DNA of 32,000 bases from an uncultured archaeon. Lineage in GTDB: Archaea > Iainarchaeota > Iainarchaeia > Iainarchaeales > CSSED10-239. Numbering within the stretch: position 1 is the first letter of the stretch; every line of letters starts with the position of its first letter. Under the pieces are notes generated by a model that made no database searches, was not told the origin of the DNA, and saw only the letters and a list, made by a program, of their open reading frames with translations. Position numbers and translations under genes: made by a program. The stretch spans positions 9,233-41,232 of the forward strand of contig CAYXWT010000002.1 of assembly GCA_964468895.1 (NCBI GenBank), in the 5' to 3' direction. Positions 20,301-32,000 of this stretch are shown here, piece after piece.

Positions 20301-20522
20301 TTACATCATTCCTTTTGCCATTCCTTTTGCTGTTCTTAAACATTTTTTATGCCAGTATTGTCCACCCCATTTTTTATCACAACCAGGCTGGTTACATAAT
20401 GCACATGTTTCAGTAGGATATTTAGCTTTTGAAAGATCAATTTGTTGTACTTTGATTTCTTTCTTTTTTTCATCTTTGTTTTCTTTTTTTTTACCAAACC
20501 ATTTTTCAAATACCATTGTCAT
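20301..20522 (-). CDS. Small Lys-rich protein with a putative CxxC-x4-C...HxxC zinc-binding knuckle
   Basis: The start ATG at 20522 (MTMVFEKWF...) is preceded by AGGTGA (rc of 20525-20530). The Cys/His pattern is CALCNQPGCDKKWGGQYWHKKC. The track's longer ORF runs into the tRNA and is rejected. Confidence 0.55.
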   Translation of the reverse strand: MTMVFEKWFGKKKENKDEKKKEIKVQQIDLSKAKYPTETCALCNQPGCDKKWGGQYWHKKCLRTAKGMAKGMM

Positions 20523-20549
20523 AATCACCTTTTTAAAATATTTTGTAAA

Positions 20550-20622
20550 TAGCCTGAAGGAGATTTGAACTCCTGTCACAAGATCCAGGGTCTTGTATGC
20601 TTGGCCACTACACTATCAGGCT
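20550..20622 (-). tRNA. tRNA-Gln (anticodon CUG), no encoded CCA
   Basis: The reverse complement of 20551-20622 folds as a cloverleaf. Acceptor AGCCUGA/UCAGGCU; D arm GUGU-AGUGGCCAA-GCAU; anticodon arm CAAGA-CCCUGGA-UCUUG; T arm AGGAG-UUCAAAU-CUCCU. The A1-U72 pair and A73 match archaeal tRNA-Gln. Confidence 0.85.
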
Positions 20623-20631
20623 AGAATATTA

Positions 20632-27706: not shown

Positions 27707-29649
27707 ATGATTCTAACAAATTATTTTCTAAAGCCTAAATGTAAATCTGATTCTAAAAAAGTATCAGCTCTTTAATTGCAGTTATTCTCTTAGTTTTGGT
27801 GGTTGTGGTTTTAATAACTATTATATTAAATTGGAGTAAATTATTTACTAACAAACAATTAATTCAAACAAATAATTTTGCAACAGAAAGTATAGCTGTT
27901 CAAGATTCTACTTTAATGTTAAAAACAGAACTTGCTGCTTCATCAAACTATACATAAAGAATAATTGTTAAAAATATAACTTCTAACACTACTGGTATTT
28001 TAACTGGTTATAAAATACTAGTTACTGAAAATCCTAATGATTATAATTTTTTAAATACAAAAATAGATTTTGATACAGAGGTAACTGTGTTACCTGGAAA
28101 TATAAATAACTTTGAAGTAGTTTGTTTTCCTTCTAGAAAATTTGATTTGTTACTTTACACAAATCATAATACTACAGAAAAAATAACAGTTAATGTAAAT
28201 ATTTATGATCCTTTATCTTGTGCTCAATATGATGCCAATATTAACCTACCAATAATAAGTAGTGTAGTTTCTAATAATAGTGGTATTTATAGTGATGGAG
28301 ATGAAATTAATCTAACTGTTACTAGTAATGCTACTGGTCAAAACTTAACAGCTGATTTTTCAGAAATAGATTCTAATTATGATGTTGGTGAAGAAGTAGT
28401 AACTGATAATGATAATAAAACTTATAATATAGTTTATACAATATTAGTATATAATATTCGTTGTGATTCTTTTTATGATATTAATATAACAGCAACAGAT
28501 GATTTTGATTTTAGTGATAGTGAAACTGAAAATGTTGAATTAGATAATGTGGCTCTAAATGTTACTGTTAATCTATTAACTACAACCGTTACTGCTCCTG
28601 ATTTAAATGGGACTATTAATGATTCAATAGCAACTCTTAGTTTGGTTGTAGATGGAGAAACTTATACTCCAACTAATAATGGAGATGATACTTGGAGTCT
28701 AACAAATGTAAATGAACTTGAAGCTGGTACTTATGATGTTAATATTTGTGCAACTGATAGTATTGGAAATGTAGTTTGTGATAATAGTGTTAATGAATTA
28801 GTTATAGAAGAAGTTATAGAAGACTTAACTTGTCCGAATGGTTACGTGTTAGTACCAAATGACCTTACTTATAACACAGGAGACTTTTGTGTAATGCAAT
28901 TTGAAGCAAAAGTTGATCAAAATAGTGATGGTATTGGAGATAGTAATAGTTTTTGTCAATATGATTCTTATCATGTTTGGGGTAATGATACTAATGGCTG
29001 TTCTTATACTGAACCTGGAAGATCAGTTATAAGTACAATAGAAGGTTATCCTTTAGCTTATATTAGTTGGATAAATGCTAAAGCTGCTTGTGAAAGTATT
29101 GGGACAGGTTATCATTTAATAACTAATGATGAATGGATGACAATTGCTAGAAATATAGAATCTCAAGGTGAAAATTGGAGTACAGGTACTGTTGGCTTAG
29201 GATATATTCCACGAGGTAATAGTGGATGTAATTGGGCTATTGATGGTACTACTGTTTTGATTGGAATACATCAGAGAAATTTAATATTAAGTAATGGAAA
29301 TGAAATTAATGATCTTGTAGGAAATGTTGCTGAGTGGGTAGATAAAACCATTACTAGAGGGAATCTGCCTCAGCCTCAACCATATAATTCAAGTTTAGAA
29401 TATGATGATATATTAAGTTATGGTTCACTTAATAGAGATGCCTACGATTTTGCAATAGGTAAAGACTATAATTCTGATAATAGTATAGGTGTCTTGAATA
29501 ATAATTATCTTGCTGGTTCATTACATGTAGTGCCTTTTGTGCGTGGTGGTGATTGGTGGAAGGAGGCAGGTGCAGGTATTTTGACTTTAAGCTTATACTT
29601 TGACTGTCCGGTCATACAGTATGGTTTTCGTTGTTCTGTAGGATCATAA
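27707..29649 (+). pseudogene. Disrupted surface protein: archaeal class-III (type IV pilin-like) signal peptide + Ig-like repeats + FGE/SUMF1 (C-type-lectin-fold) domain
   Basis: ATG 27707 (frame 2) reads MILTNYFLKPKCKSDSKK and stops at 27773. Frame 1 from 27757 reads (K)SISSLIAVILLVLVVVVLITIILNW..., hits TAA at 27955, then continues into the 520-aa ORF 28087-29649. The tail carries the TDSIGN Ig-like motif and the FGE motifs ISWINAKAAC, HLITNDEW, GNVAEWVD, RGGDW and GFRC. Confidence 0.65.
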
Positions 29650-29654
29650 ATTAA

Positions 29655-29703
29655 AAATAACAGTTTTTTTTGACCTTGAATAATGATTGGATAACTGTTA
29701 TTT
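29655..29703 (+). terminator. 11-bp perfect inverted repeat with T8 run, 6 nt after the adhesin stop
   Basis: AAATAACAGTT (29655-29665) and AACTGTTATTT (29693-29703) are exact reverse complements, separated by 27 nt. A T8 run starts inside the left arm. Confidence 0.35.
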
Positions 29704-29895
29704 GTTATCTATATGGGTAAATTTAAATTTAATTATTTTTAAGTCACCTATTTTGTGGTTGGCCCTTTATTTAATTTTTTTAAAAAGTTTTGTTTTTAGA
29801 TACCATTTTAAACAATACTTTTAAATACACTAACTTCTACTTTTATAATATATATTTTAAAAATTTAAATGATAAATTAAGAAGGTTGAAAAAAT

Positions 29896-32000
29896 ATGGT
29901 TGTAAAAAAGAAAACTTCTAAAAATAGAAGTAAAGACTTTATTCTTTGGTTTAATGAAATTGGTATAGAAGATGTTCCGTTAGTTGGTGGTAAGAATGCA
30001 TCTTTAGGAGAAATGTATTCTAATTTAACAAAAAAAAAAGTAAATGTGCCTAATGGCTTTGCTGTTACTGCTTATGCTTATAGATATTTATTAGATAAAG
30101 CTGGTATTAAAGATGATATTAAAAGAATTCTAAAAGATTTAGATGTAAATAATTTAGAACAACTTGCAAAAAAAGGTAGTGAAGTTAGAAGATTAATAAG
30201 AAGTGCTAGTTTTCCAAAAGAATTAGAAGAAGAAATTATAAGTTCTTATTATAATTTAGAAAAAAAAGAAAAAATAAAAGATTTAGATGTTGCTGTTAGA
30301 AGTAGTGCAACAGCTGAAGATTTACCTAGCATATCTGAAAACGAGTTTGTTTTATTAAAAATAAATAGTAGGATAGTTTATGACACAATTAAAAATATTT
30401 ATAAAACATATGTGCCTATAGGTAATCAAAAAATTGAAGTTCCTTGTATGGATAAAAATGAAATTGTATGGTCTAAAATAAGTGATATTTATATACACCC
30501 TGCAAAAAACAAAAAATTATATATGATTACCACAGAAACTGGTAAAGAAATAATTATAACAAAAGATCATTCTTTAATAGTTTTAGACAACAACACTTTA
30601 AAACCAAAAACAATTTCTATAGACCAATTAAAGAAAAATGAATTTTTACCTACTATTAGAAAATTACCTATTGAAAATTCAAATAAAAAATATATTTCTG
30701 TATTAGATTATGTTTTTGGAGATGATGTTGAGCTTATATCTAATAATATTTACATAAAAAATAAATCCTATAATTGGAATACTCAAAACCCACTATCAAA
30801 AGATTTAAAATTAGATGAACTTTTTTCTTATTATTTAGGTGTTTATTGTGCAGAAGGCTGTACATATAAAACTAATTGTGTTATAATTACAAATTCAGAT
30901 AAAAAGATAATGTCTAAAATTATTGAATTTTATAAGATGTATAATTTGTATAAAGAAAACAAAATCAACAAATTTTCTTTAAGAATTTATTGTAAAACTT
31001 TAGTAAGATTTTTACAAGCAACTACTGGAAAGCCATTGCCTAGAAAAGGAAAAGGAAGAGGTTGCGAAATTAAACAAGTTCCAGAATTTTTATATACTTC
31101 TAGTGATAGTATAATTGGTTCTTTTTTGAAAGGTCTTTTTGATGGAGATGGAACTGTATCAAAATCTGGTGTTAGTTTAGTATCTAAATCAAAAAAATTA
31201 ATTGCAGGAGTTTCAAATTTATTATCTATATTGGATTTTGAGTATTATATAAATAGAAAATATTCTTATTATAATCTAACAATACCACAAAGATATGCTA
31301 AAAAATATAAAGAACAAATTTCTTTTAATAGTACTAAAAAATTTTGTGCATTAAATGAATTAATTAAAAAATATAGTTCTAAGAGTATACACCCATCTAT
31401 GAAAAACAATATCTTAATCTCTAAAATACTTTCTACAAAAATAAAAGAAGTATATGATTCTAAATTAAATAAAACAAGAGTTAGTGTTGCCTATTGTCCA
31501 ATTTGTGATAAAACTTTAGATAAAACAAGTAAATATAAAGGTGAAACAAGGTTTTGTTGTAAAAGTTGTAAAAAAACATTTTATGAAAAGGATGTGGTTT
31601 ATAAAGAAATTTTAAAATATGTTAATTATGATGAAAAAGGTAGGTTTTTAAAAAATAAAAGTTCTTGGAATAAAGGTATGATGTCTAAATCTATTTCTCA
31701 GGAAAATTTGATTAAATTATTAAAGGAATTTGATTTGCAGAAATATGTGCAGTTTATAGATAGTAATATTCTTTGGGATAAAATAAAAAAAATTGAAACA
31801 ATTAATTATACAGGTAATGTTTATGATTTTACTGTTCCTAATATTGAAAATTTTAATTCAGGATTTGGAAATATTATAACTCATAATAGTGCATCTTTTG
31901 CTGGACAGCAAGAAACTTATTTAAATGTAAGAGGACCTGATGAACTAATTGATGCTTGTAGAAAATGCTTTGCTTCACTTTTTACAAATAGAGCTATAAG
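29896..32000 (+). CDS. ppsA: Phosphoenolpyruvate synthase (pyruvate, water dikinase), intein-containing, 3' end beyond the window
   Basis: Frame 1 is open from ATG 29896 to nt 32000. It is absent from the track only because there is no stop in the window. The sequence reads [27 protein letters not shown]...[14 protein letters not shown]...[16 protein letters not shown], then the insert, then [37 protein letters not shown], which is classic PpsA N-terminal ATP-grasp sequence. Confidence 0.9.
   Translation, partial: [701 protein letters not shown]
30328..31887 (+). mobile_element. Intein (520 codons) with LAGLIDADG homing-endonuclease domain inserted in ppsA
   Basis: Ser1 ([12 protein letters not shown], block A), [12 protein letters not shown] (TxxH block B), the dodecapeptide motifs [14 protein letters not shown] and [24 protein letters not shown] (block F), and the terminal IITHN followed by Ser+1. 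Removing it restores [13 protein letters not shown]. Confidence 0.85.

Follow-up and report, generated by a model that had tools for sequence, protein, structure and literature searches.

A predicted LAGLIDADG intein with a zinc-ribbon module in the nucleotide-binding motif of phosphoenolpyruvate synthase of an uncultured archaeon

The DNA analysed here is a 32,000-nt stretch of contig CAYXWT010000002.1 (assembly GCA_964468895.1; positions 9,233 to 41,232) from an uncultured archaeon of the Iainarchaeota, hereafter called the window. Its 3' end carries the 5' part of ppsA, the gene for phosphoenolpyruvate (PEP) synthase (pyruvate, water dikinase), and the PpsA reading frame is interrupted at 30328-31887 by 520 codons. 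As judged by its sequence, this interruption is very probably a class-1 homing intein, which would be self-splicing, includes a LAGLIDADG endonuclease together with a zinc ribbon, and represents an allele apart from the intein found at the phospho-histidine site of the same enzyme. The parts of the gene and of the intein are collected in Table 1.

Table 1. Features of ppsA and its intein in the window; counts refer to 83 distinct full-length members of the intein family
Feature	Position	Strand	Remarks
5' part of ppsA (PEP synthase / pyruvate, water dikinase)	29896..32000	+	Open frame of 701 codons; gene cut by the window end
N-extein, aa 1-144	29896..30327	+	ATP-grasp nucleotide-binding domain; matched by PDB PpsA chains as far as the splice junction
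Intein, Ser1 to His519-Asn520	30328..31887	+	520 codons, aa 145-664, SISENEF...NIITHN
Block A, Ser1 nucleophile	30328..30366	+	TIGR01445 intein_Nterm 3.7e-6, above cut-off; Ser1 in 83/83
Block B, TKDH (T78 and H81)	30541..30585	+	H81 in 83/83; position 78 S/T in 81/83
LAGLIDADG motif 1, YLGVYCAEG, predicted catalytic E176	30820..30864	+	Acidic in 81/83; G177 in 83/83
Block D, K249	31063..31095	+	Lys in 83/83
LAGLIDADG motif 2, LKGLFDGDG, predicted catalytic D274	31111..31158	+	Asp in 82/83; region covered by LAGLIDADG_3 and Hom_end
Four-cysteine zinc ribbon, C390/C393/C411/C414	31495..31569	+	Between endonuclease and C-terminal splicing region; each Cys in 83/83
YDEKGRF..(P/S)WNKG motif, 3' of the zinc ribbon	31627..31677	+	G438 in 82/83, W447 in 77/83, N448 in 83/83
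Block F, VYDFTV, D500	31816..31860	+	Asp in 83/83
Block G, GNIITHN, H519 and N520	31867..31887	+	His and Asn each in 83/83
C-extein start, from Ser665 (Ser+1)	31888..32000	+	Second PPDK_N stretch; PDB PpsA chains resume there

Translation of positions 29896-32000 of the forward strand in frame +1 gave 701 codons with zero stops, starting from the ATG at 29896. The regions flanking the insert matched the NCBIfam PEP synthase equivalogs (8e-64 and 7.4e-60), and the Pfam family PPDK_N, an AMP/ATP-binding domain, was recognised both before and after it, split into two stretches (1e-50), the first of which covers aa 28-147. Residues 1-144 and 665-701 together correspond to the PpsA nucleotide-binding domain. 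These extein flanks are 77-87% identical to intact homologues, and the best extein matches are PpsA proteins of Iainarchaeota/Diapherotrites, Woesearchaeota, Nanoarchaeota and some bacteria of the Candidate Phyla Radiation (CPR); the host is an archaeon of the DPANN type. A contig from a second strain, L069 (ENA contig ERZ27316756 k141_142921), is 99.72% identical to the window over 16.4 kb and lengthens the ppsA open reading frame (ORF) to 876 codons (175 residues more), with the frame still open at the contig end.

In PpsA chains with solved structures in PDB (9dae, 2ols and 8a8e; Pyrococcus, Neisseria and others), query residues 146 and 666 align to the same chain residue. The flanks are thus contiguous in solved PpsA chains, and 30328-31887 is therefore an insert. 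The insertion point, AEDLP/ (a slash marks the splice junction here and below), is located in the nucleotide-binding domain, and no other 14-mer of PpsA is as conserved as the motif spanning it, which has a mean column identity of 0.984 in an alignment of 194 intein-free homologues. The 14-mer ranked second in the same alignment is TCHAAIIARELNIP (0.914), and the two known sites of PpsA inteins, the one described here and the phospho-histidine site, are its first and second most conserved 14-mers. In the domain scheme of PpsA, the phospho-histidine is carried on a mobile central domain, apart from the nucleotide-binding domain (10.1101/2022.08.11.503304). The two independent intein sites, namely the ATP-site loop and the phospho-histidine, would provide a clean natural case of homing elements choosing immutable targets.

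A preliminary description of this DNA, made by a model from the letters and a list of ORFs, had placed an intein of 520 codons between aa 144 and 665 of a frame open from the ATG at 29896 to the window end, and both the open frame and the coordinates proved exact, with the Pfam and PDB alignments in agreement. It had further claimed that the insertion interrupts the most conserved motif of the protein, as is borne out by the 14-mer ranking, and it had proposed that intein-free homologues be aligned across the insert and that the flanks be joined; the homologues, namely the PDB chains, the syntenic ppsA of another contig (L067, described below) and a set of 113 intein-free sequences, skip the insert entirely, and the N- and C-exteins reconstitute the conserved PpsA motif. 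The remark that ppsA is missing from the ORF list is correct, though the omission is a trivial window-edge effect, since ORFs running off the window end go unlisted. The proposed search with hidden Markov models for the Hint and LAGLIDADG domains gave matches above the curated cut-offs (78.9 bits against a cut-off of 35.8 for the Hint profile PF14890, and 52.4 against 22.5 for PF14528 on the endonuclease). The intein hallmarks that had been named, Ser1, TKDH, E176, D274, VYDFTV, the terminal HN and Ser+1, are all present, whereas the zinc-ribbon module had been overlooked.

Within the insert, Pfam identified Intein_splicing (6.6e-22), LAGLIDADG_3 (2.6e-14) and Hom_end (2.4e-6); for the intein taken by itself the first two scored 4.8e-22 and 6.4e-14. 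The PI-PkoII and TFIIB mini-inteins from PDB align to protein residues 613-665, the block G region. An AlphaFold2 model of the intein built from eight sequences had a mean predicted local distance difference test score (pLDDT) of 80.5 and a predicted template modelling score of 0.79. In a Foldseek search with this model, the best PDB matches were TliVMA 7qss (1.7e-23), PI-TkoII 2cw7 (8.4e-22) and PI-PfuI 1dq3 (5.3e-21), with template modelling (TM) scores of 0.53-0.71 and sequence identities of 15-17%, and further matches included PI-SceI and the free-standing I-DmoI. The endonuclease fold matched I-DmoI and I-Tsp061I (TMt 0.62-0.69, E from 1e-5 to 8e-7). Going by these sequence matches, the insert is a class-1 intein with a two-motif monomeric LAGLIDADG endonuclease, in which the predicted splicing and nuclease residues are intact.

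The closest relatives of the intein outside PpsA are those of RNA polymerase subunit A'' (NCBIfam PRK14898, 1.6e-45; 27-31% identical over the full length to one of them, P0122). They share Ser1 and the same layout of Hint and LAGLIDADG parts, but occupy another host protein and another site, and lack both the zinc ribbon and the GRF..PWNKG module. Three such RpoA'' inteins end in THN/T, and the C-extein that follows, T[LM]R[ST][FY]..., is only vaguely like SASFAGQQ.

The residue at -1 of the extein is Pro in most members of the family (AEDLP in 42 of 53 metagenome cases; positions 30325-30330 in the window). In engineered inteins, a Pro at this position disfavours cleavage at the N-terminal junction, and the natural Pro-Ser pair may be of mechanistic interest.

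The zinc ribbon occupies intein residues 390-414 and has the form CPxC-x13-14-CxxC with the signature ..K(T/N)(S/G)..KGK.R(F/Y).CK.C.KTF. Among 32 family members, 30 matched the NCBIfam N-terminal Zn domain of IS1/IS1595 transposases (E <= 0.05, best 6.8e-10) and 28 matched IS256_N_4Cys, while Zn_ribbon_IS1595 was the Pfam family most often matched on the module (19/32 members). In the model of the whole intein, this region consists of beta strands with pLDDT values of 76-89. By these matches, the ribbon of most family members resembles the N-terminal Zn domains of IS1/IS1595 and IS256-type transposases. The ribbon of the window, whose own scores lie just below the curated cut-offs (given below), sits inside an intein and is accompanied by no transposase catalytic domain.

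When 1.84 billion representative proteins were searched exhaustively with a profile of the module, comprising the ribbon and GRF..PWNKG, 36 matched at E <= 0.001. Whole or partial PpsA inteins account for the top ten, which are all of those with E <= 1e-10, and for one weaker match; the remainder were multi-finger or single-zinc-ribbon proteins, and the ribbon signature recurs in several of the single-ribbon ones. As the full ribbon with GRF..PWNKG occurred in none of these representatives other than PpsA inteins, the module is specific to the family. A profile search of the module against PDB sequences gave only spurious matches to tandem C2H2 fingers. The GRF..PWNKG part may resemble nuclease-associated DNA-binding motifs of the NUMOD3-like kind, though no such Pfam match is listed.

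By analogy with the N-terminal zinc ribbons of transposases and with the yeast HO endonuclease, the ribbon is most likely an accessory DNA-binding module for target recognition. Yeast HO and WHO likewise join an intein-type LAGLIDADG nuclease to a zinc-binding domain, but they are eukaryotic and non-splicing, and their zinc finger is C-terminal and of another type, whereas the window has an intact intein with an internal ribbon. In the searchable papers, a comparable combination of LAGLIDADG and zinc was described only for HO/WHO. The accessory DNA-binding parts of solved archaeal inteins, such as the stirrup domain, differ from that of the window intein, and TliVMA, PI-TkoII and PI-PfuI are not reported to carry a zinc ribbon where the window intein has it, after the endonuclease and before block F. 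A LAGLIDADG intein with a transposase-like zinc ribbon could offer a ready-made system in which to study how accessory modules reshape meganuclease specificity.

Further members of the family were sought with a degenerate DNA pattern of the C-terminal junction, His-Asn-[S/T/C]-Ala-[S]-Phe-Ala-Gly-Gln-Gln (HN/[ST]ASFAGQQ). In a set of 185,579 species genomes it matched 66, and a metagenome collection gave 78 matching contigs. The N-terminal junction was also readable in 54 of the former and 53 of the latter, and it was RSSATAED[LVI]P/S in nearly all; the +1 residue was S or T in all 144 junction matches. Most inteins of the family have 510-528 aa. The window's own genome is absent from the 66 species-genome matches, and an exact 40-mer of its intein was absent from the metagenome collection. 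Protein searches found an intein at the same site (AEDLP/SIS...THN/) in seven proteins or protein fragments, which are 42-56% identical to the window protein. The C-terminus of one ENA fragment, ...CLLYTSPSPRD..., is translated Nextera adapter read-through and hence an assembly artefact.

The hosts include DPANN archaea (Woese-, Nano-, Pace-, Micr-, Aenigm- and Iainarchaeota), and other archaea, represented by ten haloarchaeal metagenome-assembled genomes (MAGs), a Methanococci MAG, ANME-1, and MAGs labelled Methanosarcinales and Thermoplasmatales. Bacterial hosts comprise seven CPR/Patescibacteria MAGs and one contig labelled Gammaproteobacteria. The PpsA exteins of the CPR hosts are 47-60% identical to those of the window, and other CPR-labelled PpsA proteins reach 64-68%. 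The intein family is therefore widespread and is not restricted to a single genome. Its presence in both the DPANN archaea and the CPR bacteria may make it a marker of gene flow among these co-occurring lineages with small genomes. With respect to annotation, 'PEP synthases' of ~1,300 aa in these groups are intein-bearing and not fusion proteins. No description of this intein family was found in the searchable literature, which is a limited set; PEP synthase is not mentioned in the main text of Novikova et al. (2016), and neither PEP synthase nor ppsA is mentioned in the text of the 2014 survey of halobacterial inteins.

Conservation was assessed in 83 distinct full-length members with a mean pairwise identity of ~41%. 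S1, H81, K249, D500, H519 and N520 are invariant in this set, the LAGLIDADG acidic residues are retained in 81 and 82 members, and each of the four zinc ligands in all 83. Conservation of 98-100% at the splicing, nuclease and zinc residues against an overall identity of ~41% indicates that splicing, the active site of the nuclease and the zinc ribbon are all under purifying selection, and this pattern points to a functional homing element.

From these features, the following scheme can be proposed. The intein would be translated in frame within PpsA and remove itself post-translationally, restoring the conserved PpsA motif. Splicing would begin with an N-O acyl shift at Ser1, in which T78 and H81 would assist, and would proceed through transesterification onto Ser+1 and cyclisation of Asn520, with the assistance of H519 and D500, to an O-N shift that restores the peptide linkage. 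The monomeric LAGLIDADG endonuclease (E176, D274 and K249) is embedded within the Hint fold, and the zinc ribbon and GRF..PWNKG come after it. The excised protein would then cut intein-free ppsA alleles at the near-invariant DNA of the conserved motif, and repair from the intein-bearing copy would spread the element by homing.

Several features of the family are relevant to such a cycle. One member is a 162-aa mini-intein, and shortened versions of 354-434 aa (354, 416 and 422 aa in three examples) have lost the zinc ribbon and/or the LAGLIDADG motifs. Intein identity and extein identity are uncoupled (Spearman rho 0.08, 922 pairs), and in some pairs the inteins are 55-59% identical and the conserved extein segment only 40-46%. 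In a rough neighbour-joining tree of the inteins, which has no support values, CPR and DPANN members are interleaved, as are the PpsA subtypes GGKNA and GGKGA, and the haloarchaeal inteins form one clade. The interleaving of CPR and DPANN inteins suggests cross-domain transfer of ppsA and/or of the intein.

A syntenic intein-free ppsA that shares the neighbouring AAT and Fer4 genes was found at positions 5849-8350 of contig L067 (JGI 3300077567, protein P0007). Its N-extein is 87% identical to that of the window, and the protein reads AEDLV/SASF. The L067 DNA aligns with the window up to 30321 and resumes at 31891; around the site 8 of 18 nt differ, the differences clustering within 9 nt of it, and the outer flanks are almost identical (30313-30327 / 31888-31902). 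At the +1 position, 113 intein-free homologues have Asp in 102 cases and Ser or Thr in six, and the Ser of L067 is thus rare, while Val at -1 replaces the near-invariant Pro. As read from this alignment, L067 looks like a former host of the intein in which Ser+1 is the footprint of a precise loss, and the allele with Val at -1 is possibly resistant to the endonuclease.

The family might, tentatively, be an undescribed homing lineage that is still active, in which the zinc ribbon was recruited to extend target recognition, and which has moved repeatedly between DPANN archaea and CPR bacteria, and also into haloarchaea and methanogens, as enabled by the choice of the most conserved stretch of PpsA; we hold this extended account with low confidence. 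A number of observations weigh against the reading of the insert given at the outset. The ppsA gene is cut off by both the window end and the L069 end, so that its 3' part lies outside the view. The window copy of the ribbon scored below the cut-offs of the transposase families (23.5 bits against 28 for NF050000, and 24.0 against 27 for NF048018), and when the module was modelled by itself (pLDDT 71), none of the zinc ribbons that Foldseek matched to it reached significance (E >= 0.1). Host labels on short MAG contigs could reflect mis-binning. The ppsA sequence is identical in the window and in the L069 strain, with no recent gain or loss visible at the strain level. Finally, none of the inteins observed in divergent hosts is near-identical to another; the one most similar to that of the window, L024, has 64% intein and 77% extein identity, so the transfers are old and not demonstrably ongoing.

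The last two of these observations, together with the decayed and mini versions in the family, also favour an alternative in which splicing has been kept, the endonuclease is dead and the element is passed on by vertical inheritance alone, since only a precise deletion would remove it from an essential motif. This alternative is possible, if doubtful. It does not account for the conservation of the catalytic acids, the block D Lys and the zinc ligands at 98-100% in proteins of ~41% identity, which is unexpected for decay; the window copy moreover retains all of the predicted catalytic and zinc residues, and the divergence of intein and extein is uncoupled.

A domesticated conditional switch, in which a cellular signal such as metal or redox state, sensed by the cysteine-rich module, would govern splicing and hence PpsA activity, appears improbable. 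In its favour, the unspliced precursor must lack activity, since the ATP-site motif is interrupted; conservation of the zinc ribbon is strict, and it has been argued that the clustering of inteins in ATP-binding sites is functional (PMC4760082). However, the splice nucleophiles are Ser rather than Cys and the ribbon is of the transposase type, and the conservation of the endonuclease active site, the decay to mini-inteins and the patchy distribution fit a selfish homing cycle.

The preliminary description had mentioned a known PEP synthase intein in Methanocaldococcus jannaschii and left open whether it occupies the same insertion site. The only published statement found on prokaryotic PEP synthases places their intein at GG[TRM]T/CHAA, the phospho-histidine (PMC10710043), which is ~280 residues downstream of the window site in the spliced protein. 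Eight PpsA proteins of DPANN archaea and CPR bacteria carry an intein at this His site, with flanks GG(K/R)T/C...N/CHAAI, a length of 396-410 aa and a start at aa 425-437, and these eight inteins are 22-25% identical to that of the window (best E 1.4e-8). The His-site inteins, of the 'Mja PEP' type, resemble the window intein in host enzyme, in being LAGLIDADG class-1 inteins and in targeting a catalytic motif of the highest conservation. They differ in site, the central His domain as opposed to the nucleotide-binding domain, and they have Cys1/Cys+1, 396-414 aa and no zinc ribbon, whereas the window intein has Ser1/Ser+1 and 520 aa. Both inteins occur in one ppsA gene at four loci, which have 1,600-1,740 codons and contain AEDLP/[ST]ASF as well as N/CHAAI. 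A homologue search that started from the His-site intein of a Methanococci MAG listed, for Methanocaldococcus, only intein-less PpsA. The M. jannaschii protein, UniProt Q57962 (MJ0542), presumably has its intein at about residues 411-822, a position in keeping with the His site.

It is thus highly improbable that the window intein is the M. jannaschii allele and hence already known, despite the shared host enzyme family and LAGLIDADG type. The published site, the low identity of the DPANN His-site inteins and their lack of a zinc ribbon, and the genes that hold both inteins are all against it, as is, though a weak point, the absence of M. jannaschii from the 66 genome matches to the window junction. 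The comparison, which draws on the published site and the DPANN His-site inteins and not on the M. jannaschii sequence, resolves towards an allele distinct from the one reported at the phospho-histidine.

That the insertion does not splice and ppsA is a pseudogene is scarcely credible: the 3' end of the gene lies outside the window and splicing is a prediction from sequence, but the frame is open for 876 codons in L069, the splicing residues are all intact and invariant in the family, and the extein flanks are still 77-87% identical to intact homologues.

The window has a G+C content of ~22% and also encodes an archaeal GatD/GatE pair, an XPD-type helicase and a class I (W/Y) aminoacyl-tRNA synthetase. 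A repeat scan of 29600-32000 found only chance matches in AT-rich sequence. Upstream of ppsA, a 520-aa ORF with a GTG start at 28087-29649 (+) gave a weak match to the Ig-like family Big_13 (1.3e-6) and a sub-threshold match to FGE-sulfatase; at the corresponding position, L067 has two smaller, unrelated-looking genes. A tRNA-Gln (CTG) was identified at 20549-20623 (-) by ARAGORN and Rfam, and the listed ORF at 20301-20579 (-) that overlaps it is probably spurious.

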